Assembly (NCBI GenBank): GCA_964348295.1
Contig: CAYGBV010000013.1
Span: 5,993-69,992 of the forward strand
DNA: 64,000 bases
Direction: 5' to 3'
Source: an uncultured Gemmatimonadaceae bacterium
GTDB taxonomy: Bacteria > Gemmatimonadota > Gemmatimonadetes > Gemmatimonadales > GWC2-71-9
Under the pieces are notes generated by a model that was not told where the DNA came from, made no database searches, and was given only the letters and a program-made list of their open reading frames with translations. Positions within the stretch are counted from its first letter, which is position 1. Every line of letters begins with the position of its first letter. A program made the position numbers and the translations under genes. Shown piece by piece: positions 32,172-54,800 of this stretch.

Positions 32172-32960
32172 GTGCCCGATAACGATACCCCGGACCGCAG
32201 GCAGGGCGATCGCCGCCGCGGGAGCGAGCAGCGCGCGGGAGGGTCGCGGCGCTCCGGCCACGACCGGCGCGCCAAGGAGCCTCCGAGCCCCGAGGCGTCC
32301 ACCCGCAGCGGCAAGGAGCGCAGAACCCGCGTGCGGCGCGCCGGTCGGCGGCGACGGCGCTGGGACCGGCGCGTCGGGGAGCACCACGACAACCCTGCGG
32401 TCTACTCGCGGGACGAGATCACACGCATCCGCAAGTTGCTGGTGAGCACTCGCGTGCCGTTCACCTGCCCCCGATGCGACGGCGCGTTACACCAGGGCGA
32501 CCCCATCATCGGCAACGGGTGCACCCTGCGGCCCGTGCGCTGTGAGGCCTGCCATCGCAGTACCACCATACCGGACTACGTTGTCGTGCGCGCACTGGTG
32601 GTTGACGACGACGAGCCGGTCCGTGAGGGTCTGGCGACCATCCTGAGGGGAGCCGGCCATGAGGCGGTGGCCACGGCAGACGGGAGCGCGGGCGTTCGCG
32701 CCTGCGGGACGGACTCGCCCGACGTTGTCTTCGTGGACATCGCGTCGGTGCGAGCCGAGGTGGAAGTCATCGCGCAGGCCCGCAAGGCGTTCCCCGATGT
32801 CAAGGTGATCGCCGTGGGAGGCCGGCAGCGCCGCGGAGCCGGTGATCCGCTGGCCATCGCGGGCACGCTGGGCGTGCAGGCAACACTGCGGCGGCCATTC
32901 ACGCCGCACGACGTGCTGCGGGCGGTGGATGTGGCGCTCGGCCTGGTACGGGCCGATTAG
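32172..32960 (+). CDS. Atypical response regulator: Arg-rich N-terminus, zinc ribbon, receiver domain
   Basis: DRR repeats; CPRC...CEAC; [10 protein letters not shown]...DVVFVDI...LRRPF. Confidence 0.65.
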
Positions 32961-37870: not shown

Positions 37871-38974
37871 CTACGACCTGCCCTCTGGGCCCTCGAGCCG
37901 CCGCACCGGATCGCCTTCCCGCAGGTTCGCCACGCCGGTCACGGCGACCAGATCGCCGTCGGCGAGGCCTCGCACCACCTCGACCTCGGCGCCGAACATC
38001 GCACCGATCTCGACCGGGGCGCGGGAAACCGTCATGGCCACCGGATCCACCTTCCACACGGACGTCTGCCCGTCGTCCGCCGCGAACACGGCGTTCGCCG
38101 GCAGGCGCTGTACGGTCGTTCCCGGCTGACCCAAGCGGCGCACGATCATGCGCGCCGTCATGCCCGGGACCAAAGCAATGTCGCTGGGCGGCTCGAAGCG
38201 GAACGTCACCTCGAAGGTGCGCGTCACCGGGTCGGCCTGTGTCGCGACCTCCGTGAGCCAGGCGGGGAACCGTCGGTCGGGAAACGTGGATACGGTACCT
38301 TCTGCATCTATCCTCAGAGGAGTGCGCGTCGATTCCACCGCCTGCCGGGCCACCAAAGCGTCGCCCTCCGGCACGGCGATCACTATCTCCAGATTGCGAT
38401 CGTCGTTGAGCAGCAGCACCGTCTCCTTGGCCTGCACGTTCTGGAAGGCATCCACGAAGGTGCGCGCCACACGGCCGGCGAACGGTGCCACGAGCCGGGT
38501 ATCATCGACCGCCTTCTGCGACGTGCGCAACCGCGCCTCCGCCACTTCGAACTGCGCCTGCCTGAGCTGGAGCTCCTGCAGCGTTACGGCGTCGGCGGCG
38601 TACAGCTCCTGATAGCGCCGATAGTCCGCACGGGCCGCTTCGAGGCTGGCGGCGTCCGCATCGCGTTGCGCCTCGTAGTTGCGCGCATCGAGCCGCGCTA
38701 GCAGCTGGCCCCGTCTCACCCATTGTCCCTGCACGACCGGCATCGCGACGATGAGTCCGGGGACCTCGAAGGCCAGCTCGGCCCGCTCCGCCGCTTCGAC
38801 CGTCCCCGGGTATTCCCGTACGCCGGAGACACCGCCGAAGCCGATTTCGATCATCTTGACCGGACGGGCGACCGCCTGCTCCGGCGGCGGCTCACCGCCG
38901 CAGCCGGGAACGAACGCGCCGAACGTGGCGAGGAGCACAAGCGTGCGCAACCTCGAGCAGCGTTTCAAATCCAT
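37871..38974 (-). CDS. RND periplasmic adaptor (MFP), lipoprotein
   Basis: Lipobox VPGC, hairpin helices, LVAPFAGRV, DPVTRTFEV. Confidence 0.92.
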   Translation of the reverse strand: MDLKRCSRLRTLVLLATFGAFVPGCGGEPPPEQAVARPVKMIEIGFGGVSGVREYPGTVEAAERAELAFEVPGLIVAMPVVQGQWVRRGQLLARLDARNYEAQRDADAASLEAARADYRRYQELYAADAVTLQELQLRQAQFEVAEARLRTSQKAVDDTRLVAPFAGRVARTFVDAFQNVQAKETVLLLNDDRNLEIVIAVPEGDALVARQAVESTRTPLRIDAEGTVSTFPDRRFPAWLTEVATQADPVTRTFEVTFRFEPPSDIALVPGMTARMIVRRLGQPGTTVQRLPANAVFAADDGQTSVWKVDPVAMTVSRAPVEIGAMFGAEVEVVRGLADGDLVAVTGVANLREGDPVRRLEGPEGRS

Positions 38975-39010
38975 GGCTTCAATCCGTGGTCCTGTAGTCT
39001 GTGCACTGTG

Positions 39011-41431
39011 CTACTCCATGCCGCGCTCGCGCAGGTAGTCTCCCAGGCGCTGAATGAACGCCTCGCGCGAGGCCTCGTCGAGAAACAGGTCGATCTGGCC
39101 GGCCGCCCGCTGCACGGCCATGAAGTCAGTGATGAAATCGTACAGCGTATTGGCCGCGTCGAGCTCGGCAACGAGCGCCGTGTTCTGGGCGTCGAGCAGG
39201 CTGAGGATGCCGGTTACGCCCCCCGCGTAGGCAGTCCGCACGAGCTCGTAGTTACCCTGTGCTGCGGTAGCGGCCTCCCGCGCCAACTCCAGGCGCACCC
39301 GGGACGACAGCAGGCGCTGCAGCTCGTCGCGCATCGCCTCCTCAACCCGCTGCGCCTGCGAGGTGCGCTGATACTCGAGGCTGAACAGGCTCTGTTGGGC
39401 CCGCTCCTTTGCCGCGGTGCGCGAGCCGCTACCGAACAGCAAGTAGCGGGCACTCAGCGAAATCGACCAGCGCCAGGGGTCGGCCTCCCCTTCAGGCACC
39501 AGGCCGGGAGGCAGACCACCGCCCGAGAAGTCCGAGCCGGCGCCCCCCTCCAGCAACCGGTTCGAGAGACGCGCATCGAGAAAGAACTCAGGCAGCCAGA
39601 AGGACCGGTTGGCGGCCGTCACCGCGCGCTCCTGGCCCCCGATCAGCGCATCAAGCGCCCGCAGCTCCGGCGACGTTACCAGCGCTTCGGCAATCATGAA
39701 GTCCTGGAAGCCGTCGAAGCGCTGCGGGTCGTCCAGCAGCCGCGTCAGGGCGTCCTCCGCCCAGCGGATCACCGGATCTTCGAGCTCATCCTCGGGGGTG
39801 GCGACATCCTCGCCGAGTGCTCGGTGCAGCAGGCGGTTGAGCCGTATCTCGGCAACTGCCCGCGCGGCCGCCGCGCCGACCACCCCCTGGCGGTCCTTGG
39901 AGACCTGCGCCTGCCAGCGCAGCACCTCCCCCGGAGTCGCCGCTCCCGTCTGCCGCCGCACATCGGCCAGGTCCAGGTTCGTGCGCGTGAACGCGAGGTT
40001 CTCCCGCCGGATCTGCTCGGTCGTCTTGCGGCGTAGCACGGTCAGATAGGCGTCGGCCGCCTCGAATGACACGTCGAGCCGCAGCGACGCGTAGTCCTCC
40101 TCCCGCGCACGCTGCAGCGACTGCTGAATAGTCCGATCCGCCCACGCGCGGTCGGCATACACGACCTGCGAAAGCCCCACCGAGCCCAGCAGCTGCCTCT
40201 GGGGCAGGACCCCGAGGCTGCGGGCCGCCCGGTCTTCGTCGATGATCGTGCCCGAGAATGCCAGATCGAGCTGCGGCAGGAGGCGTGACGTCGCGGTCTT
40301 CACGTCCTGCGCGGCCGCCTGCACAGCGCGCTCGAACGACGCGAGATCCTGATTCTGCGCCAGCGCCTCCCGCACGATCGAGTCGAGCGACTGCGGCTCG
40401 GGTTGCACCCCGGGCCGCTCCTCGATGAGTCGCGCGTCGCTCAGCATTGTCCACGACGGATACACCCCGATGGCGCGCGCGGTCTGCATATTGACGATCA
40501 AGCGCTCCTGCGGCACGAACGTCACGCGCAACTGCCCCGGTGCATCGCCCCGGAGGATCTGTTCTACGGTGAGCGCCGTCAGCCGAGCGAGCTGGAACGT
40601 GAAGGAGTCCGGGCGCCGCGCCAGCAGGATGCCCTGGCGAACCTCGGCCTCCCCGAACCAGGAGAGGCTCGGCAGCCCGAGCTCAATCAGTCCATCTGCC
40701 AGCTGCTCGAACGCCGCGCTCGAGACCCGCGACAGTGGCAGCACGTACACTGCGTCCGCCCCAGCGACCTCGATTGCGTCGAGCGCGAGTTGAACATCGT
40801 CGCCCACCGGAACGACCACCGCCTCGGCTCCGGCTTGCGCCACCAGCTGCTCGACGCGGCTGTCCAGGGCCGGCATCTCGGCGACCGCAGATGCACTCAC
40901 GAGCACGGCGAGGCGCTGAAAGGCGACCACCTCGGCCAGCGTGGCGAGATCCCGGTTCTCGGGTCGCGTGAGGTACACGAAGTTGGACACCCCGGAGGCA
41001 GCGCCCTGTCGGGGGATGTCCTGTAGCGAGGGGTCGAGCACGAAGGGGGCGACGACCGGCTTGGCGAGTCGCGGATGGTCGGCAGCCACCTGTGCACCCA
41101 TGGTACCGACGACCACTACCACGTCCACCCGATCCATGAGCTGATCGAGCGCCGCACGGATGCCGGCCTGCGTATGATCGCCGGCCAACCTCACATCCCC
41201 CCCGATGCGCACCTCGAACCGGTTCTCGAGAAGCACCGCCGTCTCCCGCTCGATCTGGTCCAACAGCTCGCCGAAGCGGAGAAACGGGCCGTCGGTCAGG
41301 ATGCCGATCGTCACCGGTGTCCGCTCTTGGGCGGCGGCCGTCGGGGCGACCGAGCCAATCCCGAGTGCAGCCAGCACCGCAAGCAGGAGACGGGTAGCCA
41401 ACGGATGTTCAGCGGACAGGCGAACTCCCAT
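39011..41431 (-). CDS. TolC-family outer membrane protein fused to an N-terminal ABC substrate-binding-like domain
   Basis: Signal peptide; about 330 aa periplasmic-binding-like region ending LIVNMQTARAIGV; OEP repeats (ALAQNQDL, SRLLPQLDL, SFWLPEF, YAGGVTGILSLLDAQ). Start 41431 or 41461, not 42325. Confidence 0.8.
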   Translation of the reverse strand: MGVRLSAEHPLATRLLLAVLAALGIGSVAPTAAAQERTPVTIGILTDGPFLRFGELLDQIERETAVLLENRFEVRIGGDVRLAGDHTQAGIRAALDQLMDRVDVVVVVGTMGAQVAADHPRLAKPVVAPFVLDPSLQDIPRQGAASGVSNFVYLTRPENRDLATLAEVVAFQRLAVLVSASAVAEMPALDSRVEQLVAQAGAEAVVVPVGDDVQLALDAIEVAGADAVYVLPLSRVSSAAFEQLADGLIELGLPSLSWFGEAEVRQGILLARRPDSFTFQLARLTALTVEQILRGDAPGQLRVTFVPQERLIVNMQTARAIGVYPSWTMLSDARLIEERPGVQPEPQSLDSIVREALAQNQDLASFERAVQAAAQDVKTATSRLLPQLDLAFSGTIIDEDRAARSLGVLPQRQLLGSVGLSQVVYADRAWADRTIQQSLQRAREEDYASLRLDVSFEAADAYLTVLRRKTTEQIRRENLAFTRTNLDLADVRRQTGAATPGEVLRWQAQVSKDRQGVVGAAAARAVAEIRLNRLLHRALGEDVATPEDELEDPVIRWAEDALTRLLDDPQRFDGFQDFMIAEALVTSPELRALDALIGGQERAVTAANRSFWLPEFFLDARLSNRLLEGGAGSDFSGGGLPPGLVPEGEADPWRWSISLSARYLLFGSGSRTAAKERAQQSLFSLEYQRTSQAQRVEEAMRDELQRLLSSRVRLELAREAATAAQGNYELVRTAYAGGVTGILSLLDAQNTALVAELDAANTLYDFITDFMAVQRAAGQIDLFLDEASREAFIQRLGDYLRERGME

Positions 41432-41677
41432 GAGGCCTCTGGGTAAGTGTCCGTTACTCATACGGCTTCTGTCATTTGGGCTGAAGTACGGCCCGTGACG
41501 GCGAAGAGCTATACCCTCTTGGTGGTATGCGGGAGCGAAGGGGGCAGCATACACCGGGCGGACCCGTCTCGTCAACGCGCCGCGATTCGAGATCGGCATC
41601 AGTGGCGCCGCGGCGCAGGTAGACAAACGGCGCGCATCCGTCGATCTTTGGGCGGCAAACTGCAAAGGAGCCTCGGC

Positions 41678-42250
41678 ATGTATTCCGTTCGCGTTCCAGT
41701 TCTGGCGGCCGTCGCCGTCATCACGCTCACGACCACCGCGCTGGCACAGGAGGCCAAGTTCGTTGGCATCTCCGGCGGAGCTACGCTGGGCGACCTCAAT
41801 GGCGGCGTGACCAACACCGACAACCGCTGGGGCGGTACCGCCGGGGTGTTCTTCGGCTACCGCAGGTGGTACACGATCGGCGTGCTCGAGGCCAACTGGG
41901 TACAGAAGGGTGGCGGGGACACCCGCATCGACTACATCGAGGTTCCGTTCCTCGTTGGCGGCGGGACCACGACGGACGCCGGGATCCTGTTCCGGCTCTA
42001 CACGGGGCTGGGAATCGCCTTCCCCATCGGCTGTAACTCCACCTCGACCTCCGAGCTCCAGAACTGCGACCTGAAGAAGAGCCCCGAGTGGGCGTGGCCC
42101 ATCGGCCTGCTCGTCGGGCGCGAAATCGGCGGCCCTCGCTTCGCGGCCATCGACGCGCGCTACTCGATCGGCATCTCGGACGCGTTCGATAACGCGATAT
42201 CCTCGAATCGCTCCTGGCAGTTCCGCCTGTACGTGGGTCAGCGACTCTGA
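41678..42250 (+). CDS. Small outer membrane beta-barrel protein
   Basis: Signal peptide (ALA-QE), alternating Gly/aromatic strands, DARYSIG, C-terminal strand QFRLYVGQRL. Confidence 0.7.
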   Translation: MYSVRVPVLAAVAVITLTTTALAQEAKFVGISGGATLGDLNGGVTNTDNRWGGTAGVFFGYRRWYTIGVLEANWVQKGGGDTRIDYIEVPFLVGGGTTTDAGILFRLYTGLGIAFPIGCNSTSTSELQNCDLKKSPEWAWPIGLLVGREIGGPRFAAIDARYSIGISDAFDNAISSNRSWQFRLYVGQRL

Positions 42251-42282
42251 TCCGGCGCCGCGCAGCGGGCGCGCCAACCAGA

Positions 42283-42311
42283 AAGGGCGAGCGCACGGCG
42301 CGCTCGCCCTT
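42283..42311. terminator. Hairpin between convergent genes, likely bidirectional terminator
   Basis: AAGGGCGAGCGC-ACGGC-GCGCTCGCCCTT, perfect 12-bp stem. Confidence 0.7.
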
Positions 42312-42337
42312 GGCACATCCGGCACCGCGGTGGGCCG

Positions 42338-43738
42338 CTAGCCTCTCAGCCCGGCCACGAACTTGTCGAGCAGCGTGCTGGGGAACGTCCCGCCCGACTC
42401 GAGTATGTCGCGATACCGCGTGAGCGCGTCGGCCACCTCGTAGAAGTCGCGCGGCACCCGCTCGGCGCGCCCTCCCTTCCCTTGCCTCGCCTGCTCGGCC
42501 GAGGTGCGCTGCAGCAGGTCCTCCAACTCCTCGGTGTCGCGGCCCTTGATCATCGCCAGCGCCGCGCCGGCCAGGAGCAGGTGGGGCAGCGCCGAGCCGT
42601 CGGGCAACCGGAACTCCACGGTGGCGGGCGTTACCACCCGACCGGTCCCGTCGGTGGCCACCACCGGCAGGCGAATCAGTGCCTGGCGGTCGTAGTCGCC
42701 CCACACGATGGTGCTGGGTGCCTCCTTGGCCTGGCGGATACGGACGAAGGAGCCCTCTACCCGGTTGCCGAACGCCATGAGGGCACCACCCATCTGCACC
42801 AGCCCACCGATGAGCCACCGGGCGCCATCGGTAAGCGTGCCGTCCTCGTGCTTGACGGGCAGCACCTCGCCGTCCTTGACGGGCGCCAGGTGGAAGTGGA
42901 GTCCGTTCCCAGCGTGGCCCTCGAGCATCATCGGGCCCGTGGCGCAGCGCATGCCCTTCCGGTGCGCCAGGTTCCGCAGCACCCATTGGGTGAGCAGAAT
43001 CCCGTCGGCGGCTTCGGGCAGCGGCGCCAGGGAGAGCTCGATCTCGTGCTGCTCCCAGATGACGCCTCCCGCCTCGCTCGCCTCGATGTAGCCCACCTCG
43101 CTGTGTCCGTACTTGACCGGCACCGCGAGGTCTGCCAGCAGCGCGAGCGCCTTGCGCCGCAACCCTTCTCCGAACACGAATGGGGAGCTGGCGTGGTAGC
43201 CCCGGTCGTCGGCGCCGTAGATGTCCGACTCGTCGCGTCGCTTGCCGAGGAAGTACTCGACCTCACCGAGGGCCCAGAGCTCGACGCCCGCGGTCTCCTT
43301 GAGCTGCCGCACGGCGCGGCGCAGGATCGTGTCGGGCGAGGCCGCCAACGGCTTTCCGTCCCGGTCCGCGTGCCCGCACATCAGCACCAGCGTCGGGAGC
43401 GACGCGAACGGATCGAGGAACGCGGTCCCCACGCGGGGCCGCAGCACGATGTCGGACCGGTCGGGCGGAATCCCGGCGCGCGGGAACAGGCTCGAGCCGT
43501 CGGCCCGCTCGCCGCCCTCGATGATGTCCTCGAGCTGCTGCGCGCTGCGCGGCACGAAATCCAGCGTCTTGAGCCAGCCGTCGCCGCCCACGTGCATCAG
43601 GCTCACGACTTGAATGCCGCGGGCCCGCACCAGCTCCACCAGATCGGCCGCGGTCCACGCGGCGCGTGGCTTGTCCAGCTCGTCCTCCAGGCTCATTCCC
43701 CGCGGCACTGGCGTGCGCGGCCGTGTTTCTTCACTCAT
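42338..43738 (-). CDS. Glutamine synthetase-family protein (Bacteroidota-like GS I variant)
   Basis: DGSSLF, GEVEYF, HSEVG, QHEIE, GNGLHFH, EAP, DRQALIRLP, VEFRLPD; ATG 43738 overlaps gatD stop. Confidence 0.88.
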   Translation of the reverse strand: MSEETRPRTPVPRGMSLEDELDKPRAAWTAADLVELVRARGIQVVSLMHVGGDGWLKTLDFVPRSAQQLEDIIEGGERADGSSLFPRAGIPPDRSDIVLRPRVGTAFLDPFASLPTLVLMCGHADRDGKPLAASPDTILRRAVRQLKETAGVELWALGEVEYFLGKRRDESDIYGADDRGYHASSPFVFGEGLRRKALALLADLAVPVKYGHSEVGYIEASEAGGVIWEQHEIELSLAPLPEAADGILLTQWVLRNLAHRKGMRCATGPMMLEGHAGNGLHFHLAPVKDGEVLPVKHEDGTLTDGARWLIGGLVQMGGALMAFGNRVEGSFVRIRQAKEAPSTIVWGDYDRQALIRLPVVATDGTGRVVTPATVEFRLPDGSALPHLLLAGAALAMIKGRDTEELEDLLQRTSAEQARQGKGGRAERVPRDFYEVADALTRYRDILESGGTFPSTLLDKFVAGLRG

Positions 43739-45129
43739 CGCCACACCTTCTCCAGGAACTCCTGAATCTCCGGCACCCCACCCTGGAACACCAGGTACCC
43801 GTCGTGCGGCTCGCGTGCCGTGGTCTCGCCGGCGACGGGCGTCATCATGAGCTGCTTCACCGCCTCCGGATCGTCGGGGTGTGCCCCCAGCGCCCACCCC
43901 AGCTTAACGAACGCCACCTCGGGCAGCATGTTGGCGAGCGGGATGACGCCGAGCTCCAGGATCTCGCGCCCCGTCTCGTACACCTGCATCTGCACGAAGC
44001 CCCACAGGGTCTGGAGCGTCATGTACATGTGCACGCCGGCGGCGTGCGCCCGCCCCAGCGCCGGATAGATAGTACGATTGACGTGCCCCAGGCCCGTGCC
44101 CGCGATCACAATTCCCTTGTAGCCCTTCTCCACCAACGCATCCACTACGTCGGCGTGCATGCCCGGGTAGTAGTACAGCATCGTGACCCGCTCGTCGTAC
44201 ACCGCCTGGACCGTGACGTCGCAGTCGTTGCGGCGCCGCTGCCAGTCGTCCTTGAGCGGGGTGATCGTGCCCTTCTCCACCATGGCGAGGGGAACGTCCC
44301 CCAGCGTGCGGAACGTGCTGCGGTAGGAGCTGTGCATCTTGCGCACCCGCGTGCCGCGGTGCAGCAGGTTGTAGCGGTCCGAGGTGGGGCCGAACATGCA
44401 CACCATCACCTCGGCGATCGGCCCGCGCGCCGCCGTCCACGTGGCATTGATGAGGTTCTGCGCCGCGTCGGACGACGGCCGGTCGGAGGAGCGCTGCGAG
44501 CCCACCATGACGACGGGCACCGGCGGCCGCTGCACCATGAACGACAGCGCCGCCGCCGTGTGGTGCATCGTGTCGGTGCCGTGGCCGATCACCACGCCGT
44601 CCCAGCCGTCGCGAATCGCCTCGCCCACTTTCTCGGCGAGGATGAGATACTGCTCGGGCCCCATGTTCTCGCTGAACACGCCGAACAGCTTCTCCGTCTC
44701 GAGGTTGCAGATGTCGGCCAGCTCGGGCACCGAGCCGTAGAGCTCCCCGGGGCTGAACGCCGGGATCACCGCGCCCGTGCGGTAGTCGAGCCGCGACGCG
44801 ATGGTGCCGCCCGTGCCGAACAGCTTCACGCGCGGCTTCACCGGATCGGTGGGGAACTCCTTCTCGGGGATCTTGTAGCGCGCCTCGCGGTAGCCGGTCT
44901 CTTCCATCACGAGGATGGTGTCGAACCTGAGCCCCACGTTGTAGCCGCTCCCCAGCTTGAGCACCAGGTGCGCGTCGTCGCTGGTCTCCGAGCGCGGCAG
45001 GATCAGCCCCTCGAAGTCGCCGCGGGTGGTGCGGGCCTTCACCTCGCTCCACACCTTCACTCCGAACCGCTTCATCACCTCGAGGGTGGGTCCGCGGTAT
45101 CCCTTGTATTGGTCCTTGCCGCCGCTCAT
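43735..45129 (-). CDS. gatD: Glu-tRNA(Gln) amidotransferase subunit D (archaeal-type, asparaginase fold)
   Basis: GatD-specific N-domain (YKGYRG...EGLILPRSETSDDAHLVLKLGSGYNVG), TGGTIASRLDYRTGAV, SENM, HGTDTMH, GSQRSSDRPSSDA, HRGTRVRKMHSS, AFVKLGWALG. Confidence 0.92.
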   Translation of the reverse strand: MSGGKDQYKGYRGPTLEVMKRFGVKVWSEVKARTTRGDFEGLILPRSETSDDAHLVLKLGSGYNVGLRFDTILVMEETGYREARYKIPEKEFPTDPVKPRVKLFGTGGTIASRLDYRTGAVIPAFSPGELYGSVPELADICNLETEKLFGVFSENMGPEQYLILAEKVGEAIRDGWDGVVIGHGTDTMHHTAAALSFMVQRPPVPVVMVGSQRSSDRPSSDAAQNLINATWTAARGPIAEVMVCMFGPTSDRYNLLHRGTRVRKMHSSYRSTFRTLGDVPLAMVEKGTITPLKDDWQRRRNDCDVTVQAVYDERVTMLYYYPGMHADVVDALVEKGYKGIVIAGTGLGHVNRTIYPALGRAHAAGVHMYMTLQTLWGFVQMQVYETGREILELGVIPLANMLPEVAFVKLGWALGAHPDDPEAVKQLMMTPVAGETTAREPHDGYLVFQGGVPEIQEFLEKVWR

Positions 45130-47213
45130 GCCACCGTCTCCGGCACGGCGTCCTCGAGCGCCTGTGTCAGCCGCCGCCGTACGTCGGTCGGGTCGAGCCG
45201 GCCCAGGAACCCGGGCATGACCGCACCCATCGCCCAGCGCAGCACACCGTCGCGTGACGCGGTCGTGAGCGACTGTGCCTCGACCACCACGTCGGTCAGG
45301 CGGCGCGTGAGCTCGTCCGCGTCGTGGGCACGGCCCCGGTAGCGCGCCAGCAGCTCGTGTGCCGCGACCTCGGGTCGCTCGATGAGCGCATCCAGCATGC
45401 GGTCCAGCGCTTCTACCCGGATCTCACCCTTCTCGATGGCAAGCACCATGGGCGCGAGGCGCTCGGGCGCGGGCAGCGCCGCCGCATCCCGCGTGAGCCG
45501 CCCCTGCCGGCGGTGGTGCGGCAGCCGCTTCTGGAACGCGTTGGCGAGCCGGCGCGCCACGTCACCGGCCGCGGGCGCGAGCGCGTCGAACAGATCGGCC
45601 CACTCCGCCCGGGCGAGTCGCCGCGCCATTCGGAGTTCTAGCCCCAGCTTCTCGTAGCGCGCCTCACGCGCCCATGGCGTCTCGGCGATCTGCTCGCGCA
45701 CCTCGGCCACCAGCGCGTCGGCAATGGGCAAGGGCGGCGTGTCGGTATCGGGGTACATGCGGTCCGGCCCCGGCAAAATGCGCTCGAACCCGTTGGTACC
45801 GTCGTCGAACGCCTGGCGCGTCTCCGAGGGCACGCCGACCAGGGCGTCCTGGCACCGGATCAGCACCTCGCGCGCCGCGGTGGCCGCGTCCTCTTCCGTG
45901 CCCCACACGACGACGATCGCGTCACCCGTCTCGGCCTTGAGCTGCTTGCGCAACTCGCGCCACTCGCGCGGGTCGAGCCCGTAGTCCTTGATGTCGGAGT
46001 GGATCATGAACGGGCGGTGCTCCGGACACGCGATCACGCGCACCCGGTCGGCGATCTCGCGGGCGAAGGTCACGCCGGGCTGGGTGCGGTGATTGAGCAA
46101 ACCATCGAAGCCGGGGAGCCGCACCGCAGCGATCGTCTCCCCCCGCTCCAGCGCGTCGCGCATCGGTTGAAAGTCGGAGTGAGCGAGCGCGGTGCCAGCG
46201 TCCACCACCTGGTCGCTCACCTCCCACGGCAGCCCACCCTCCGGAGTGGTGAGCATGTCGTCCCCCACCTCGCGCCGCACCAGCTCGGCCTTCACCCTGA
46301 GCAGGTTGAGCTGGCGGAACGCCTCGGTGTGGACCAGGAGCGGCAAGTGCTTGTGGTTGTCCACCCCCTTGAGCTCCACTCGCCGCCCGCCCGCCACCGA
46401 GACGTTGGTGTCCTGCCGTGCCGCTCCCGGGCCGCGCCGCACCTTCCCCGTGGCCTGCGCGATGGCCGCCAGCAGGCGCCCTCCCGCACGGACCTCCCAG
46501 GGAGTCAGCAGGTCGGGCTCGGTGACCGTCTCGGTAAGCGGCATCCCCAGGCGGTCGGTCTTGAACGTGATGCGGTGGCCGATGTCGGTCACCTCACGGC
46601 AGGAGTCCTCCTCCAGCGAGAGCTGCCGGATCCTGAGCTCCCGGTCCACGCCTAGCTCCGGCACCCGGAACGGCACCGTGCCCGTGAGCCCCACCATGGC
46701 CGTGCGCTGGAAGCCCGTGGGGATCGAGCCGTCCAGGTACTGCTTGCGCATCACGTGTAGCTCGGACACCAGGTTCAGATTGCAGAGCTGCGCGATCTCA
46801 ACCGCGATCCGCACCGCCTCTTCGTCGAGCTCGAACGGCGGCGTGTCGTCCATCTCGTAGGTGCAGACCGTGCCGCGCTCCAGCCGGTACACGATCTCCT
46901 TCTTGGTCTTGAACTCCATGAGCGCGGTGCCGTCGTACTCGCCCAACTCGCTCAAGGTGGGGCGCATGTGGCGCAGTACCTCGGCGTCGTACACGGTCAC
47001 CCGCCGGCCCGCCGGACAGCGGCAGAACAGCTTGGACGTGGTGCGGAGCTGCTGGTGGACCTCGACGCCGGACATGAATCCCACGGCGTCGTAATCGCCG
47101 GGCGTCATGTCGGCCAGGTCCTTGTCGCGGAAGTCCAGCGCCGGCTCCCGGCGGGGGTTCAGATCCGCCGGGGGGCGCGGGCCGGACTGGTTGGCGTTGT
47201 CGTCGTCGCTCAT
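45126..47213 (-). CDS. gatE: Glu-tRNA(Gln) amidotransferase subunit E (archaeal-type)
   Basis: GVEVHQQL..KLFC, RPTLSELGEYD, MRK...DGS..TGFQRT, LEED, DRLGMPL.E, KVRRG.G..RQD.NVS..GG.RVELKGV, AspRS-like insertion, GVPSETR, LPGPDRMYPDTDTPP, tail WAMGAVM; start trimmed to ATG 47213. Confidence 0.92.
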   Translation of the reverse strand: MSDDDNANQSGPRPPADLNPRREPALDFRDKDLADMTPGDYDAVGFMSGVEVHQQLRTTSKLFCRCPAGRRVTVYDAEVLRHMRPTLSELGEYDGTALMEFKTKKEIVYRLERGTVCTYEMDDTPPFELDEEAVRIAVEIAQLCNLNLVSELHVMRKQYLDGSIPTGFQRTAMVGLTGTVPFRVPELGVDRELRIRQLSLEEDSCREVTDIGHRITFKTDRLGMPLTETVTEPDLLTPWEVRAGGRLLAAIAQATGKVRRGPGAARQDTNVSVAGGRRVELKGVDNHKHLPLLVHTEAFRQLNLLRVKAELVRREVGDDMLTTPEGGLPWEVSDQVVDAGTALAHSDFQPMRDALERGETIAAVRLPGFDGLLNHRTQPGVTFAREIADRVRVIACPEHRPFMIHSDIKDYGLDPREWRELRKQLKAETGDAIVVVWGTEEDAATAAREVLIRCQDALVGVPSETRQAFDDGTNGFERILPGPDRMYPDTDTPPLPIADALVAEVREQIAETPWAREARYEKLGLELRMARRLARAEWADLFDALAPAAGDVARRLANAFQKRLPHHRRQGRLTRDAAALPAPERLAPMVLAIEKGEIRVEALDRMLDALIERPEVAAHELLARYRGRAHDADELTRRLTDVVVEAQSLTTASRDGVLRWAMGAVMPGFLGRLDPTDVRRRLTQALEDAVPETVA

Positions 47214-47331
47214 GGGCCGAGAAAGATATCGTCGAGACGGTGTAGTTGCCTGCCAGCAGGCCCTTGCGGCCATGGCGTGCCCTATCTAGGCTTATCCCGA
47301 CAACAATCATCCCCATTGATCCGAAACAGGC

Positions 47332-48246
47332 ATGTCGATCCGACCCGTCAAGCGAGTCATCCAGTCGCAGCCGACCCTGGAGGGCGCCGGTGTCCGGCTG
47401 CGGCGCGCCTTCGGGTTCGGCGACACGTCCGACTACGACCCGTTTCTGCTGCTGGACGACTTCCGCAACGAGAATCCCGACGACTACCTCGCGGGCTTTC
47501 CGTGGCACCCGCATCGCGGCATCGAGACCATCACGTACGTGCTCGCGGGCACGGTGGAGCACGGCGACAGCCTGGGCAACAGCGGCGCGCTGGGCGCCGG
47601 TGACGTGCAGTGGATGACGGCCGGCCGTGGCATCCTGCACCAGGAGATGCCGCAGGGCGATCCCAAGGGGCGGATGCACGGCTTCCAGCTCTGGGCCAAC
47701 CTTCCCTCGTCGCTCAAGATGACCGAGCCGCGCTACCAGGACGTCTCCTCGGCCGACATTCCTGAGGTCACCGACGACGACGGCACGCACGTGCGGGTCA
47801 TCTGCGGCAGCTTCTGGGGCAAGACCGGTCCGGTAGACGGCATCGCGGCCGACCCCCGTTACCTCGACGTGTGGGTCCCGCCCGGCACGCGCAAGACGCT
47901 GCCCGTCGAGACCTCACGCCACGCATTCGCCTACGTGTTCGACGGCGCGGGCAGCTTCCGTGACGCATCGCAGCCGCGCGACGTGCGCACCGACCAGGTG
48001 GGCGAGCCGGTCACAGCAGAGTCGGCAGCAGCAAAGGAAGAAGAAGTAGCGAACCGCTCGCTCGTGCTGTTCGACCGCGGCGACGAGGTCACGGTCCAGG
48101 CCGGTGAGCAGGGCATCCGTTTCCTGCTCGTCTCGGGCAAGCCCATCGAGGAGCCCGTGGCGTGGTACGGCCCCATCGTGATGAATACGCAGCAGGAGCT
48201 GCAGCAGGCGTACGCGGAGCTGCGGGAGGGGACGTTCATCCGGTAG
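47332..48246 (+). CDS. Pirin family protein
   Basis: DPFLLLDDF, FPWHPHRGIETIT, WMTAGRGILHQE, YGPIVMNT. Confidence 0.93.
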   Translation: MSIRPVKRVIQSQPTLEGAGVRLRRAFGFGDTSDYDPFLLLDDFRNENPDDYLAGFPWHPHRGIETITYVLAGTVEHGDSLGNSGALGAGDVQWMTAGRGILHQEMPQGDPKGRMHGFQLWANLPSSLKMTEPRYQDVSSADIPEVTDDDGTHVRVICGSFWGKTGPVDGIAADPRYLDVWVPPGTRKTLPVETSRHAFAYVFDGAGSFRDASQPRDVRTDQVGEPVTAESAAAKEEEVANRSLVLFDRGDEVTVQAGEQGIRFLLVSGKPIEEPVAWYGPIVMNTQQELQQAYAELREGTFIR

Positions 48247-48383
48247 CTGCCCATGTCCCGGACTGCGCGGCGAATCCCTACTTGACAACCCACGCACCAA
48301 CTGGCCTCATCAGGCAGCGACACACGAAACTCCAACCCATTTGCATTCGCGCTGCATCAATGTCCAAAGGAGGAACCACAACC

Positions 48384-49940
48384 ATGAGGAGACTATCCAC
48401 GGCGGCTGCCACACTGCTGCTCACCGCAGTGTGCGTGACGCCGGCATTCGCTCAGGACAGGCCCAACATCCTGGTGGTCTGGGGCGACGACATCGGGCAG
48501 TCCAACATCAGCGCCTACACGATGGGGTTGGTGGGCTACCGGACGCCCAACATCGACCGCATCGCCAACGAAGGCATGATCTTCACCGACTACTACGGCG
48601 AGCAGAGCTGCACGGCCGGCCGCTCCTCGTTCATCACGGGCCAGAGTGTGTTCCGGACCGGCCTATCCAAGGTGGGCCTCCCCGGAGCCGACCTTGGGCT
48701 GCAGATCGAGGATCCCACAATCGCCGTCTTCCTGAAGGATCTGGGCTACGCCACGGGCCAGTTCGGCAAGAACCACCTGGGCGACCGGGATGAGTTCCTG
48801 CCCACCAACCACGGCTTCGACGAGTTCCTCGGCAACCTGTACCACCTCAACGCTGAGGAGGAGCCGGAGAACGAGGACTACCCGGGCGATGTGGTGCTGC
48901 GCGACGGCCGTACCTTCCACGAGGCCTTCGGACCCCGCGGAGTGATCCACAGTTGGGCCGACGGCCGCATCGAGGACACGGGTCCGCTCACGAAGAAGCG
49001 CATGGAGACGGTGGACGACGAAACGGTCGAGGCGGCACTCCGCTTCATTCGGGACGCCCATGCCGCAGGAACGCCGTGGTTCGTGTGGTGGAACGGCACC
49101 CGGATGCACTTCCGCACACACGTCAAGGAGGAGCTGCGGGGGATCTCCGGGCAGGACGAGTACGCGGACGGAATGGTCGAGCACGACATGCACATCGGCC
49201 AGTTCCTCGACCTGCTCGACGAGCTGGACATCGCGGACAACACCATTGTCTTCTACAGCACCGACAACGGCCCGCACATGAACACGTGGCCCGACGCTGC
49301 CTGGTCGCCATTCCACGGGGAGAAGAACACCAACTGGGAGGGCGGCTGGCGGGTGCCGGCGATGGTGCGCTGGCCCGGCAGGATCGCTCCAGGGTCGGTG
49401 AACAACGAGGTCGTGCATCACATGGATTGGCTCCCGACTTTCGCTGCGGCGGCGGGCAAGGACAACATCAAGGAAGACCTGCTCGACGGTTACCGCTCCA
49501 GGGCCATGGACAGGTCATACAAGGTGCATCTGGACGGCTACAACATCCTGCCGCTGCTCACGGGTGAGACCGACGAGAGCCCGCGCCATGAGATCTTCTA
49601 CTTCTCCGACACCGGCGACCTGACGGCGCTGCGCTACGCGGACTGGAAGCTCGTCTTCATGGAACAGCGTTCGGATGCCGGTCTCCGCGCTTGGATTGAC
49701 CCCTGGATCCCGCTCCGCGTGCCGCTGGTCTTCAACCTGCGGCGCGACCCGTATGAGCGGGCCATCGAGACGTCCAATACCTACTACGACTGGCTCATCG
49801 ACCGTGTCTTCCTGCTGGTACCCGCACAACAGTACGTCGCGAGGTTCCTGCAGACGTTCCAGGAGTTCCCGCCGCGCCAGACGCCCGCGAGCTTCAGCAT
49901 CGACCAAGTGATGGAGAAGCTCGTACCGCCGTCGCACTAG
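48384..49940 (+). CDS. Exported arylsulfatase (Cys-type formylglycine sulfatase)
   Basis: AAGGAGG RBS, signal peptide, WGDDIG, SCTAGRSSFITG (CxxxR), GKNHLG, STDNG. Confidence 0.93.
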   Translation: MRRLSTAAATLLLTAVCVTPAFAQDRPNILVVWGDDIGQSNISAYTMGLVGYRTPNIDRIANEGMIFTDYYGEQSCTAGRSSFITGQSVFRTGLSKVGLPGADLGLQIEDPTIAVFLKDLGYATGQFGKNHLGDRDEFLPTNHGFDEFLGNLYHLNAEEEPENEDYPGDVVLRDGRTFHEAFGPRGVIHSWADGRIEDTGPLTKKRMETVDDETVEAALRFIRDAHAAGTPWFVWWNGTRMHFRTHVKEELRGISGQDEYADGMVEHDMHIGQFLDLLDELDIADNTIVFYSTDNGPHMNTWPDAAWSPFHGEKNTNWEGGWRVPAMVRWPGRIAPGSVNNEVVHHMDWLPTFAAAAGKDNIKEDLLDGYRSRAMDRSYKVHLDGYNILPLLTGETDESPRHEIFYFSDTGDLTALRYADWKLVFMEQRSDAGLRAWIDPWIPLRVPLVFNLRRDPYERAIETSNTYYDWLIDRVFLLVPAQQYVARFLQTFQEFPPRQTPASFSIDQVMEKLVPPSH

Positions 49941-49959
49941 GGCTCGTGACGCGCATCAA

Positions 49960-49990
49960 GGACCGGGGATCCACCAGGGGTCCCCGGTCC
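49960..49990 (+). terminator. Probable rho-independent terminator after sulfatase
   Basis: GGACCGGGGATCC-ACCAG-GGGTCCCCGGTCC stem-loop followed by TCTCGCTT. Confidence 0.65.
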
Positions 49991-50121
49991 TCTCGCTTAC
50001 CGACGTCGGTACCGGCTCAGATCTTAGGCTATCTCGTTGGCAGCGGAGCCGACAGCCCAAGCCTGAACGCCGACCGACGCTTTCCTAAACCACCCATTCC
50101 AAAGACCCAAGGAGCGAGACA

Positions 50122-50688
50122 ATGACCAATGGCAACCCCATCGCCGACGTGGCGAAAGTCGGCGCCGCCGGAAGCAGCATGTGGGGGATCGTACTGCTGA
50201 TCCTCGGCGTGCTCGCCATCTTCGCGCCGTTCGTAGCGGGAACAGCCACAGTGATTACCATCGGCGTGATCCTCATTGCCGCGGGACTCGTGACGATCGT
50301 CGGGGCATTCGGCGCCCGCACGGGCGGCGCCGGAGTGCTGGCGTTCCTGTTGGGCATCATGATGGCGTTGGCCGGTTTGGTGATCTTGGCGCGGCCGCTG
50401 CTCGGCCTGGCATCGATCACGGCGGTGCTGGCCTTCTACTTCGCCTTCGACGGCATCGTCGACATCATCGCCGGCTTCAGGGCACGCCCCACCAGGGAAT
50501 GGTGGTGGCCGGTGTTCGTCGGCATCGTGTCGCTACTCCTCGCCTTCCTCATCTGGCGACAGTGGCCGACATCCGCTGCATGGTTCGTCGGCGTTGTGGT
50601 GGGCGTGCGCCTGATGTTTGCCGGTTGGGGAATGCTGATGATTGGAAGTGTCCAGGCGGCCGTGGCTGACACGATCGAAGGCGGGTGA
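50122..50688 (+). CDS. HdeD/DUF308 family membrane protein
   Basis: WGIVLLILGVLAIFAP, FAFDGIVDII, WPTSAAWFVGVVVGV; six TM helices. Confidence 0.88.
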   Translation: MTNGNPIADVAKVGAAGSSMWGIVLLILGVLAIFAPFVAGTATVITIGVILIAAGLVTIVGAFGARTGGAGVLAFLLGIMMALAGLVILARPLLGLASITAVLAFYFAFDGIVDIIAGFRARPTREWWWPVFVGIVSLLLAFLIWRQWPTSAAWFVGVVVGVRLMFAGWGMLMIGSVQAAVADTIEGG

Positions 50689-51740
50689 ACATGTTGAGGA
50701 TGCTCCGCTTGATTCTGGTCGGCATTCTCGGCCTGGGCGTCCCGGTGTTCAAGGCAACCACGGCCCTGGCAGCGTCGCTGGCGTTGGCCGGGATGCTGCT
50801 CTCGGCCTGCGCCGGCCCGGGCGACCCCCTCCCCTCCTGGAACGATGGCCCCGCGAAGCAGTCCATCACGGACTTCGTGGACCGCGTCACCGATCCGGCT
50901 AGCCCCGACTTCGTGCCGGAGCCCGAGCGCATCGCCGTGTTCGACAACGACGGCACGCTCTGGGCAGAGCAGCCGCTCTACTTCCAGCTCCTGTTCGCGC
51001 TAGACCGGGTGCGGGCATTGGCCGATGAGCGCCCCGAATGGCAGGGACGGCAGCCGTTCCAGGCGATCGTCGAGGACGACCGGGAAGCGCTCGGCCGCCT
51101 GACACTCCACGATGTGGTGCAGGTCGTGATGGCGACGCATGCCGGCCTGACGGTGGACGAGTTCAACCGGCACGTCGCGGACTGGCTGGAGACGGCCCGC
51201 CATCCGCGGTTCAATCAGCCGTTCCATCACCTGACCTACCAGCCGATGCGGGAGGTGCTCGACTACCTGCGGGCCAACGGGTTCAAGACGTTCATCGTCT
51301 CGGGTGGCGGGATGGACTTCATCCGGGTGTTCGCCGAGGAGGTCTACGGCATCCCCCCGGAGCAGGTCATCGGCTCGATGGGGCAGACCGCGTTCGAGGT
51401 GTGGGACGAGGGCCCCGTGCTCGTGAAGCAACCCGAGATCAGCTTCGTGGATGACAAGGCCGGCAAGCCGGTCGGCATCCACCGCTTCATCGGGCGACGC
51501 CCCATTGCGGCCTTCGGCAACTCGGACGGCGACCTGCAGATGCTGCAGCACACCGCAGCCGGTGAAGGCCCGAGTTTGATGGTCCTGCTGCACCACGATG
51601 ACGCCGAGCGGGAATGGGCCTACGATCGGGAGTCGCACGTGGGGCATCTCGATGCGGCCCTGGACGAGGCGCACGAGCGCGGCTGGACGGTGATCTCGAT
51701 GCAGAACGATTGGAGCCGGGTGTTCGCGTTCGGGGAGTGA
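50685..51740 (+). CDS. HAD-family hydrolase, probable lipoprotein
   Basis: Lipobox LSAC; PLPSWND, FDNDGTLW (motif I), IVSGGG, GNSDGD. Confidence 0.88.
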   Translation: MNMLRMLRLILVGILGLGVPVFKATTALAASLALAGMLLSACAGPGDPLPSWNDGPAKQSITDFVDRVTDPASPDFVPEPERIAVFDNDGTLWAEQPLYFQLLFALDRVRALADERPEWQGRQPFQAIVEDDREALGRLTLHDVVQVVMATHAGLTVDEFNRHVADWLETARHPRFNQPFHHLTYQPMREVLDYLRANGFKTFIVSGGGMDFIRVFAEEVYGIPPEQVIGSMGQTAFEVWDEGPVLVKQPEISFVDDKAGKPVGIHRFIGRRPIAAFGNSDGDLQMLQHTAAGEGPSLMVLLHHDDAEREWAYDRESHVGHLDAALDEAHERGWTVISMQNDWSRVFAFGE

Positions 51741-51843
51741 GCCGCGGGACCGACCAACCCAAACGAGCGGCGGCGCCTCGCGGCAGAGATCGAACGATTA
51801 GCAAAGCGGTTGGATGCACTTGACGCCTAGCAAGCTGCAAACG

Positions 51844-54800
51844 ATGAGCGCTCACGGCAGCGGCTCCACGACGGTCAGCGTGGAACGGCGTCTCTTACGG
51901 CGCGCCGCCCTGCTGATTGCGGCACTCCCAGTTCTCCTGCCGACCCTCGACATCACGCCGGCCGCCGCGCAGGACGTTCCGCCCGACAAGGGCGGGATGG
52001 TGTACTCGCTCGGGATGCCACCCGTGTGGAAAGGAGACGCCGGCGCCACGATAGGCCCCTACGATCCGGGGCAGAACGGCCGCCTGAACACGCTCGTCAG
52101 CATGGGCCTGCGCCGCAATCTGGGGAGTCCAGTCGTCGGGCTCGCCGCGCTCGGTGTGGAGGGGTATGCCGGAATGCGGGGAGAACAGGTCGACGGCGGC
52201 GGCCGCGCCCTGTTCATGGTCCCGGCACTACACTTCACGATCGGCGCCGATTTCAACGTGCGCGACGAGGCATTCGACCTGCTGCTGCGTCTGGAGCTGC
52301 CGATCCGCCGGGGTGGCATCCTGGGCCGTGGCACGCAGCTCCGCATCGACTACGTCCCGACCCGCGGCAACACCCTCGGCGTCGGCGTGGGCGTCCCGTT
52401 GTGGGGCCGCAACATCGGTGCCACCCGGCCCAAGCGCAATACTGTGAAGCTGGAGCAGCCGCCGGCCGAGCGGATAGCCCTCGAGCAACCTTCACCGGGG
52501 CTCGACGAGTCCCTCTCCGAGCTGCACGAAGGCGCCCGCTGGATCACGCTGCTGGCGATGCCGCTCACCGATCACGGCGGCGCCGATCCACAGGAAGCGT
52601 TCGGGCGGAGCGTGGCGCAGCTCGAGGCCCACATTGGAGCCGGCCGCTCGCTCAATGAAGAGATCCGTCTGTATCACGCCGAGCTGGACCGCGCTTTCTC
52701 CATCGCGGCCGCGGGCCGCTCCCTACCGCGAGGGGAGAGCACCGCGCAGGGCCGCGCGGCGAGCGCCGCGGCGCGAAGGATCCTGCTCGACGACGTGGTG
52801 CTCCCCTACAACCGGCTCCTGGGCCAGCGCAAGTCCAACGACGCGCTCGACCAGTTCGCGGCGGTCGGGCACGCGGAGTACGCCCGCTGGGTGCTCACCG
52901 AGTCCGGACTCCCGGAGGACCGCTTCCGCGAGGTCTTCTTCGTGTTCCAGACGCTCGTGGACATCGCCGAGGAAGTCAGGGTACTGCAGCGCGAGCGCTG
53001 GAAGGACTCCCGCTTCGTGTGGGTACCACTGCAGCTCGGACTGCGACCGGACGAACACGACACGCAAGCTGAGATCGACGCCATCCTCGAGCGCGCGGTG
53101 GGCGAGCAGTTCACCCGCGGCAATCACGTGTGGTACGTCAGGAACGAGGACTTCCAGCTCCAGATGGCCCGCTCCGTGCTGGAGGCCAAGGAGTATCACG
53201 TGCTGTGGATCCACGATTTCCGCGGCAAGGTCGGAGGCAGGCCGGACGAGATCGCGGGCGCGCAGACTCTCATCTACCTGAACGCGCTGACGCGCCGCGT
53301 GCGCGAGTACGACGAGACCGGAGTGCTGCCGTCTTACTTCATCTTCATCGATCAGCACTACTTCGAGCTGAACGACAGTCGCTACTTCTTCCGTGTGTTG
53401 CACGACCCGCTGGACCATGAGCTGCGCATGCCGGAGGGTTACGAGGAGTGGGAGCGGCGGCTGGCCGCCGCACAGGACAGCCTGCGGCAGGCCGTGGACG
53501 AGTCCGTGCTGCTGCGGGTGCGCCGGCGCCAGTACGGTGAGAACTGGCTCAAGAACCGGATCAAGGTGCACATCAACGTCACGAACCCGTCGGACTTCTC
53601 CTTCAACAGCTTTCACATGGCCGGGATCATCCCGCTGCCCGACAACATCATGCGGGACCACCGCAAGATCGCTTTCTACGACGTTACGGAGGACGATCCC
53701 TACCGCGGCCTCGCCATGTACACGGGCATGGGCATCAGTGATCACTACGCCGGCGCGGGCTGGGAGGATCGTGCCATCATGGTCCAGGGACCATCGGCGC
53801 TGTCGGTGAAGGATGCGGCCCGGCACCTGCTGCGCGCGCAGGGGCTCACGGAAGCGGAGATGCCACTCTCCCTCCGGGCGAAGCCCAAGCCGGCTGACTA
53901 CGACGCGCGGGTCGAAGCCGAGCGGCAGGCGATCGAGAGCGAGTGGCTGGTGGATCCGGGAAGCGTGCTGGAGCTGCACAACGAGACCGGCTTCCAGGCG
54001 AAGCAGATCGACGTCGCCAAGGCGGTGATCTACAGCCTGATGCCGAGCGGCTCGGTGCTCAAGATCCCCGACTCACTGTGGCAAAGCTACGTCTACGCCT
54101 CCCTGCTCGTCGGTAGCGCGCTGCGCGGATGCAAGGTGCTGATCTTCGCGCCCGCCCTGGCATCGGCGCCGAGCTCGGCCGCACCGACCATGGCCCGCGC
54201 CCACGGGTTGTTCAGCGCGCTGGTCTACTGGCGGAACGAGCTGGCGGACGAGTTCCTGGCCGAGGGAGGCCTTCTCAAGATCGGTCTTTATGCGCCTCGT
54301 TCCGGCGTGGGCGACCTGCGTGGCCGCATCATCCAGGCACGCGAGACCAGGGTAGCCGCCCTGGCGGATCTCTACCCGGGCAATCCGGTGGTGCAGGCGG
54401 TGCTCGACAGCATGGAATACATCCTTGACGAGGTCGGATACGAAACCGAGTACCTCATCGCTGCCGATACGACGGAGCGGCCCAAGCTGCACCTCAAGGC
54501 CAACTTCGTCATTTCCGGGGAGGCGTGGGATGCCCTGTACGACCGTCCGGAGTGGGGCCCGGTGGTGCGCGAGTACCTGAAGTACGTGGCGCGCGAGACC
54601 GGTCGCGTGGAGAGCCGGGTCGACGCACGGGAAGCTCCACAGGCGCTACAGGAGGCCTTCGCGGAAATGATTCGCGGCATGCTGGACGACCACCCCGCGG
54701 CGCGGCAGGAGCAGTGGCTCGCCTACCTCACCGTCGGGTCCGTGAACATGGATTATCGCAGCATGGTGATGGACGGCGAGGTGATGATCACGGTCTCCGG

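Follow-up and report, generated by a model that had tools for sequence, protein, structure and literature searches.

What is an intact gatE-gatD pair doing on the chromosome of a bacterium that also encodes a glutaminyl-tRNA synthetase (GlnRS)? Reviews published between 2008 and 2022 treat GatDE, a Glu-tRNA(Gln) amidotransferase, as an archaeal signature (PMC2330236, PMC2811023, PMC9499178). The pair considered here lies in a stretch of 64,000 nucleotides (positions 5,993 to 69,992 of contig CAYGBV010000013.1, assembly GCA_964348295.1) from an uncultured, soil-type Gemmatimonadaceae bacterium. This whole stretch is called the window, and coordinates given without a contig name refer to it. The two genes are gatD and gatE, and their products are neither GatB nor a plain asparaginase. 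On balance, we consider it probable that a functional Glu-tRNA(Gln) amidotransferase is encoded here, one that is adapted to a bacterial tRNA(Gln) with a U1-A72 first pair and would replace GatCAB beside GlnRS. Comparative genomics favours such a genuine amidotransferase over a repurposed enzyme, though it would not be the only route to Gln-tRNA(Gln) in this organism.

Identity and integrity of the gene pair

Both genes are on the minus strand. gatE, the kinase/transamidase subunit, occupies 45126-47213 and encodes 695 aa from its second ATG. An upstream ATG at 47273 would extend it to 45126-47273 and 715 aa; the shorter start gives a length like that of the majority of homologues (688-701 aa). 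gatD, the asparaginase-type amidase subunit (464 aa), lies at 43735-45129, and the gatE stop and gatD start share an ATGA that can be read directly from the sequence at 45129-45126. An earlier note on this DNA, made from the sequence alone, had described these frames and their overlap, and both are present as it gave them.

Against curated NCBIfam equivalog hidden Markov models (HMMs), GatD scored 483 bits with TIGR02153 (gatD_arch; cut-off 324), and GatE scored 479 bits with NF003107 (cut-off 456) and 415 bits with TIGR00134 (cut-off 320). GatB HMMs gave GatE at most 152 bits (cut-off 338), and the specific asparaginase HMMs NF006998, TIGR00520 and NF008304 gave GatD at most 142 bits, under their cut-offs. 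In this comparison, which the earlier note had proposed as a check, the equivalog cut-offs were passed for GatD and GatE and not for GatB or the specific asparaginases. TIGR00519, which models the type I asparaginase subfamily more broadly, also accepts GatD (369 bits; cut-off 260.5), as is to be expected, since GatD belongs to that subfamily. Pfam assigned GatD_N (42 bits), Asparaginase (187) and Asparaginase_C (103) to GatD, and GatB_N (140), GAD, which is the AspRS-like insertion (36), and GatB_Yqey (29; cut-off 27) to GatE. Among solved structures, GatD matched the chains of M. thermautotrophicus (2d6f_A) and P. abyssi GatD at 383 bits, versus 142 bits for the best free asparaginase. GatE aligned over its full length with the GatE chains 1zq1_C and 2d6f_C (302 and 289 bits), versus 54-76 bits for bacterial GatB chains and 32 bits for one mitochondrial chain.

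Two simpler identities were considered and rejected. A free type I L-asparaginase, taken as a stand-alone protein of about 330 aa that has neither the GatD N-domain nor GatE as a partner, is ruled out by the GatD_N domain, by the 383 as against at most 142 bits, and by the coupling to gatE. The GatB of a GatCAB is ruled out by the GatB scores, by the GAD insertion, and by the source genome itself, in which no GatB was found. In some bacterial lineages, GatE and GatD appear to be fused in single open reading frames (ORFs) of about 970-1150 aa (L114, from Myxococcales, L103, and protein P0057).

The catalytic residues of both subunits are intact, and the motifs, the AspRS-like insertion and the GatD-specific N-domain cited by the earlier note are all there. 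GatD carries TGGT at 106, HGTDT at 183 and RVRKMH at 261, identical in 2d6f_A and 1zq1_A. GatE carries EVHQQ at 51, LEED at 200, PLTE at 225 and ARQD at 265 (695-aa numbering). In M. thermautotrophicus GatE, Mg is bound by His15, Glu157 and Glu184 (PMC2330236), which align with H53, E200 (in LEED) and E228 (in PLTE) of the window protein; these residues are invariant among 27 bacterial-type sequences. A positively charged loop of GatE has been described as facing the tRNA's first base pair (PMC2811023), and it is conserved as KVRRG here versus KVKRG in archaea. The tail differs. Archaeal GatE has a G-x-x-A-x-G-x motif there that is implicated in the rejection of Asp-tRNA(Asn) (PMC2811023). We did not find the G-x-x-A motif in the window GatE, which reads SRDGVLRW instead; archaeal-type GatE mostly has G-x-x-A ahead of LMG, and bacterial-type sequences share a basic-basic-aromatic [KR][KR][WYF].

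The locus is chromosomal, bacterial and non-chimeric. The source genome (3.4 Mb in 74 contigs) is rated 92% complete and 0.6% contaminated. A different assembler had been used for a public run whose contigs cover 38000-52000 evenly, at 7-9x, and bridge the junctions between the downstream TolC-like gene and a glutamine-synthetase-like gene, between the latter and gatD, between gatD and gatE, and between gatE and a pirin-like gene. Since this run probably comes from the source sample itself, the tiling checks the assembly and is not an independent occurrence. A search for further public runs gave DNA metagenomes and no RNA data sets. In four other species genomes of the genus, the same order of RND, membrane fusion protein, TolC-like, glutamine-synthetase-like, gatD and gatE genes is found; beyond gatE, three have the pirin-like gene and the sulfatase, and G281 has the sulfatase only. 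The nearest GatE relatives carry Gemmatimonadota names in their sources. G+C is 0.68-0.70 throughout the locus, which is that of the remaining window. The earlier note had argued from host-like composition against contamination and had asked for read coverage; the composition, the coverage and the shared flanks all bear it out. Its list of flanking genes (TolC/RND, an outer-membrane barrel, valS and purH) was partly wrong: the TolC-like/RND cluster is a direct neighbour of the operon, and the other direct neighbours are the pirin-like gene and the sulfatase.

Both gatE and gatD are under purifying selection. Ratios of nonsynonymous to synonymous substitution (dN/dS; Nei-Gojobori), calculated between the window genes and the four genus genomes, are 0.14-0.18 for gatE, 0.10-0.13 for gatD and 0.13-0.16 for the glutamine-synthetase-like gene, with flanking genes in the same range, and in five species of the genus all three frames are unbroken. 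At four loci elsewhere (L025 in G232, L033 in G059, L047 and L091), gatD is split over two frames, by frameshift or assembly error.

Distribution and ancestry of bacterial GatDE

In a survey of 401 species genomes of Gemmatimonadota, GatE scored above cut-off in 20 (about 5%), with one further fragment, and the carriers fall in five families; most other genomes of the phylum gave only the weak double match typical of GatB. A search of 1.84 billion representative proteins returned GatE sequences in three bands of identity to the window protein: Gemmatimonadota at 61-70%, about 35 representatives at 42-54%, whose named members are bacterial metagenome-assembled genomes (MAGs), and a large set at 31-38%, whose named members belong to Heimdallarchaeota, Thorarchaeota, Thermoprotei, Parvarchaeota and Thermoplasmatota. 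An organism name was attached to 9 of 30 cluster representatives, and taxonomy was taken from a genome scan. That scan covered one genome each for 185,579 species and gave at least 597 confirmed loci of the window GatE type, from bacterial species that belong to about 15 phyla; the best 80 of these are all in MAGs. The matches listed include Ignavibacteriota, Bacteroidota, Chlorobiota, Rhodothermota, Planctomycetota, Myxococcota and Acidobacteriota, further lineages such as Zixibacteria, KSB1, WOR-3, Caldisericota, Fermentibacterota, Krumholzibacteriota and Aminicenantes, among others, and two Thermoplasmatota-labelled MAGs. gatD adjoins gatE in almost every locus where the contig permits, which answers the survey of synteny that the earlier note had called for, and GatD across phyla is 60-76% identical to the window GatD.

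Full-text searching of the literature found no paper on GatDE in bacteria, though PGAP and IMG already label these bacterial proteins GatE. The bacterial family is annotated in databases and not discussed in the searchable literature.

Two trees place this family relative to archaeal GatE. FastTree, run on 214 sequences and rooted on four bacterial GatB, recovered two sister clades, one of archaeal GatE (78 rows, support 89) and one of bacterial-type GatE (132 rows, support 93). In IQ-TREE (61 rows, LG+C20, four bacterial GatB as outgroup), the archaeal clade received 100% in the Shimodaira-Hasegawa-like approximate likelihood-ratio test (SH-aLRT) and excludes every bacterial-type row; the bacterial-type rows are basal and paraphyletic in an unsupported order, and are monophyletic only in FastTree. 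No bacterial sequence was nested within archaea in either tree. The window GatE stands apart from GatB and falls in bacterial-type GatE, and it is here that the label "archaeal-type", used by the earlier note, gives way: it is a misnomer, because the window clade sits outside the archaeal clade. Gemmatimonadota GatE form one clade (support 100) that spans several families, with the exception of G155, whose GatE groups with Vicinamibacterales and so indicates a separate transfer among bacteria. In the Thermoplasmatota-labelled MAGs (L048 in G407 and L064 in G418), GatE is of the bacterial type and falls inside the bacterial clade. G407 has a bacterial GlnRS (743 bits) and an archaeal-type GluRS match, and is either an archaeon with bacterial genes or a mixed bin.

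The placement of bacterial-type GatE outside the archaeal clade is solid. An equal age of the two is not, the root of these trees being a long branch to a narrow outgroup. The trees support an old presence of gatDE in bacteria as opposed to a recent acquisition. The earlier note had proposed an old acquisition; its age stands, and its isolation does not, the window being one member of a clade with at least 597 loci. A bolder history, which we hold tentatively and regard as rather unlikely, is that GatDE was not an archaeal invention. The bacterial clade would then be as old as the archaeal one and would descend from a GatDE predating the split of Bacteria and Archaea, which parts of the FCB group, Planctomycetota, Acidobacteriota and Myxococcota would have retained and which would have co-adapted to U1-A72 tRNA(Gln). 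In lineages with GlnRS it would, with a linked glutamine synthetase, now rescue the Glu-tRNA(Gln) produced by a GluRS whose discrimination never became complete. As related in PMC9499178, Sheppard and Soll inferred GatDE in LUCA (last universal common ancestor).

These results matter for arguments in which the bacterial absence of GatDE has been used. Reviews draw on it when discussing the entry of Gln into the code, the failure of archaea to adopt GlnRS, and the content of LUCA. A deep, species-rich bacterial GatDE clade outside archaea alters the data behind those arguments, and the LUCA question is testable by phylogeny. On a practical level, the presence of GatDE is unusable as an archaeal marker in metagenome binning.

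GatDE beside GlnRS

The window encodes GlnRS at 32957-34699 (glnS, minus strand; TIGR00440 739 bits, cut-off 426), 10.4 kb from gatE. In three genera of the family (G060, G206 and G059), glnS stands directly after gatD, and in G060 and G206 gltX is divergent beside gatE, which gives the order gltX / gatE-gatD-glnS. glnS is genomically linked to gatDE in the window lineage. A third partner is glutamine synthetase (GS). A divergent gene of this family (GS-like; 42338-43738, minus strand, 466 aa) overlaps gatD, the gatD stop and GS-like start sharing an ATGA, again read from the sequence, at 43738-43735. It is the operon's third gene in this genus and is kept after gatD in 7 Gemmatimonadota genomes. 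GS-like matches Gln-synt_C in Pfam (127 bits) and scores 146 bits with the GlnA model (cut-off 429), falls below every GS model cut-off, and is 26% identical to the canonical GlnA of its own genome (contig C5, 549 bits). Across 100 loci, a GS gene adjoins gatE or gatD in 12, from several phyla. The linked GS is a divergent paralogue in Gemmatimonadota and one other locus; it is of the ordinary GlnA type in five loci, from Planctomycetota, Rhodothermota, Krumholzibacteriota and a Thermoplasmatota-labelled MAG, and in one of these five (Rhodothermota) it lies about 4 kb from gatE and is not adjacent. Read as a guide to function, these gene-order facts tie the predicted enzyme to tRNA(Gln).

The pattern of replacement in the family points the same way. 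AsnRS is near-universal in the window family (374 of 401 genomes), though about 90% of its genomes keep GatB, and GatCAB is therefore probably retained there for Gln and not for Asn. The 38 GlnRS-positive genomes sampled in the family comprise 25 with GatB, 11 with GatDE (two of which also have GatB) and two with neither, so that an amidotransferase is kept in 36 of the 38. GatB is missing from 12 of the 14 GatDE genomes of the family, and nearly all other genomes have it. All six GatE-positive genera fall among the 19 GlnRS-positive of 50 genera (hypergeometric p ~0.002). The simplest reading of these gene inventories would be that having GlnRS has not freed these lineages from the need for a Glu-tRNA(Gln) amidotransferase, and that GatDE serves them where GatCAB once did. 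Outside the phylum, 46 carrier genomes were examined: GlnRS was above cut-off in 31, GatB in 18, and neither in 4. The genomes with neither GlnRS nor GatB are five (G149, G401, G413, G420 and G423). The arrangement known from archaea, with GatDE and GatCAB but no GlnRS, is seen in a complete Phycisphaerales chromosome and in a Caldisericia genome.

The tRNAs and synthetases of the source genome bear on what the enzyme could act upon. Both tRNA(Gln) genes (C19:33300-33370 and C30:8750-8823) have U1-A72 and A73. Since tRNA(Glu-UUC) carries G1-C72, the two could be told apart by their first pair; tRNA(Asn) also has U1-A72. ARAGORN found 44 tRNA genes, including tRNA-SeC; a second, 96-nt "tRNA-Asp" at C19:30818-30913 looks spurious. 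The genome has one GluRS, encoded outside the window at C19:6856-8160. It is a short form with about 40 residues fewer near the zinc-binding insertion of E. coli GluRS, and the window family holds both short and long types. This GluRS is 62-66% identical to the GluRS of relatives that have GatB and lack GlnRS, and the GluRS of those relatives must be non-discriminating because GatB is present and GlnRS absent. The GlnRS best fits a Deinococcus-type model of a GlnRS/YqeY fusion (950 bits), with the match ending at model position 568 of 769, and is therefore without the YqeY tail. In the relatives G116, G167 and G279, GlnRS has a fused YqeY tail. As an open thought, it is conceivable that the tail-less GlnRS relies on the YqeY-like tail of GatE.

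In the mechanism that we propose, the single bacterial GluRS would supply Glu-tRNA(Gln), which GatE would bind and whose gamma-carboxyl it would phosphorylate with ATP at the Mg site of His53, Glu200 and Glu228. With a Thr as its nucleophile, the asparaginase-type amidase GatD would free ammonia from Gln or Asn; no second asparaginase was found in the source genome. The ammonia would then move to GatE, where it would turn the activated, tRNA-bound Glu into Gln. Supply of the amide donor, or its regulation or gating, is probably the task of the co-translated GS paralogue. In the window genus, GatDE would act alongside GlnRS and in place of a lost GatCAB.

Several observations weigh against this account. 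GlnRS, AsnRS (397 bits), canonical GlnA and an AsnB-type asparagine synthetase (388 bits) are all encoded, and by gene content the GatDE route is therefore dispensable. In archaea GlnRS is absent and GatDE is the sole route, whereas GlnRS is present in the window and in most bacterial carriers, and the genomes in which GatDE would be the sole route are all MAGs (with a completeness of 95% for G149). The A1-U72 pair that marks the substrate of archaeal GatDE is U1-A72 in the tRNA(Gln) here, although both are weak pairs, unlike the G1-C72 of tRNA(Glu-UUC). The altered tail motif is the main sequence reason for keeping a changed specificity in play, and it would also fit a tail that is co-adapted to a different tRNA elbow. 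Finally, R317 of the GluRS (435-aa numbering) corresponds to Arg358 of Thermus thermophilus, a discriminating position. As a predictor of GluRS discrimination, however, Arg358 fails here. Arg is found at this position in 30 of 30 short-type GluRS of the phylum, nine of them from genomes with GatB and no GlnRS, and since these necessarily non-discriminating enzymes share it, the residue decides nothing in the phylum.

Some of the same observations would suit a repurposed enzyme, which amidates another acyl-tRNA, such as Asp-tRNA(Asn), or performs a tRNA-dependent or tRNA-independent amidation outside translation, perhaps with the GS-family ligase of the operon. With all direct routes encoded, translation can do without GatDE; the archaeal tail motif tied to Gln/Asn discrimination is absent, tRNA(Asn) likewise has U1-A72, and GS-like is divergent, under all GS cut-offs, with a canonical GlnA elsewhere in the genome. 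Against such a change of function, which we judge unlikely, the linked genes are glnS, gltX and GS genes, and not asnS, aspS or biosynthetic clusters, and the linked GS in other phyla is of the ordinary GlnA type. GatE retains its catalytic and tRNA-acceptor elements, GatB is replaced by GatDE in the family survey, and tRNA-dependent Asn synthesis is unneeded where AsnRS and AsnB are encoded, AsnRS being near-universal in the family. The same two enzymes weaken Asp-tRNA(Asn) amidation as a reason for retention.

A transitional relic is a less probable explanation still. GlnRS would have been acquired, and GatDE would be the leftover of an older indirect pathway, with little present function and heading to loss. 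The scattered occurrence (about 5% of the phylum's species genomes), the GlnRS of most carriers and the apparent gatD frameshifts in a few genomes would agree with decay; dN/dS of 0.10-0.18 with frames intact in five species, a GatE clade that is monophyletic over several families of the phylum, translational coupling of gatE, gatD and GS-like, and the amidotransferase kept in 36 of 38 GlnRS-positive family genomes would not. The archaeal names of the best solved relatives and models might suggest that archaeal DNA arrived by a recent transfer, or was misplaced into a bacterial bin during assembly or binning. This is hardly credible given the host-like G+C, the contigs from an independent assembler that tile 38000-52000 at 7-9x across all junctions, the flanks common to four other genus genomes, the 31-38% identity to archaeal GatE versus 42-54% to that of other bacterial phyla, and an archaeal clade that excludes the bacterial type at 100% SH-aLRT. 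A Glu-tRNA(Gln) amidotransferase that works beside GlnRS thus remains the reading that we prefer.

Downstream, a candidate operon end was read by hand directly 3' of the GS-like stop, as a G+C-rich hairpin followed by TTTCTGGTT (42282-42306, minus strand); a scan of 42000-47600 for consensus promoters and terminators listed no site, including at this hairpin. The next ORF on the minus strand, 39011-42325, is very long (up to 1104 aa, depending on its start). It resembles TolC in the C-terminal half and matches no model in the N-terminal half. A 267-aa ORF overlaps it on the opposite strand (41447-42250).

Comparison with known systems

The closest known counterpart is archaeal GatDE, solved for M. 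thermautotrophicus with tRNA(Gln) (2D6F) and for P. abyssi (1ZQ1), which has two subunits with the same domain order as the window pair. In both, GatD joins an N-domain to a type I asparaginase fold, and GatE consists of a cradle, an AspRS-like insertion, a helical domain and a YqeY-like tail. The Mg ligands, the Thr/Thr-Asp/Lys set, the charged first-pair loop and the adjacency of the genes are also common to the two. The window GatE differs in being 31-38% identical to the archaeal proteins, in belonging to a separate clade, and in a tail without G-x-x-A. Its host has a tRNA(Gln) with U1-A72 and not A1-U72, and its partner GluRS is of the bacterial type. The window pair shares its operon with a GS paralogue, a place that glnS takes in relatives, and GlnRS coexists with it in the window genome. 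Reviews report no GlnRS in archaea (PMC2943598, PMC9499178), to which one Thermoplasmatota-labelled MAG found here is a possible exception. The two clades form a natural experiment, in which one enzyme family meets tRNA(Gln) with opposite first pairs, on the bacterial side with a bacterial-type GluRS.

Bacterial GatCAB (S. aureus 2DF4/3IP4; the Thermotoga maritima glutamine transamidosome 3AL0) carries out the same overall reaction on U1-A72 tRNA(Gln) as we predict for the window enzyme. GatB is a paralogue of GatE (68-76 bits), and in the window family GatDE takes the genomic niche of GatCAB. The amide-releasing subunits are unlike: GatA is an amidase-family glutaminase, while the window GatD is of the asparaginase type. 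GatB has no AspRS-like insertion, reads U1-A72 with a 3-10 turn, and has a Lys-rich tail motif (PMC2811023). GatCAB additionally makes Asn-tRNA(Asn), whereas GatDE is Gln-specific in archaea.

The coexistence of GlnRS and AsnRS with an amidotransferase has precedents in Deinococcus radiodurans, Thermus thermophilus and Bdellovibrio bacteriovorus (PMC4206432, PMC1865053), and the window GlnRS best fits a Deinococcus-type model. In those three species, however, the amidotransferase is GatCAB, kept for tRNA-dependent Asn synthesis, whereas the window genome has the GatDE type together with AsnB. This leaves a physiological question: why do bacteria with GlnRS hold on to a second route that is tRNA-dependent and has a glutamine synthetase of its own, and why is this route often linked to GlnRS? 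The architecture of the enzyme was already known. What is new here is a separate bacterial clade with its own tail motif, a U1-A72 tRNA, a bacterial GluRS as partner, coexistence with GlnRS, and linkage to GS.

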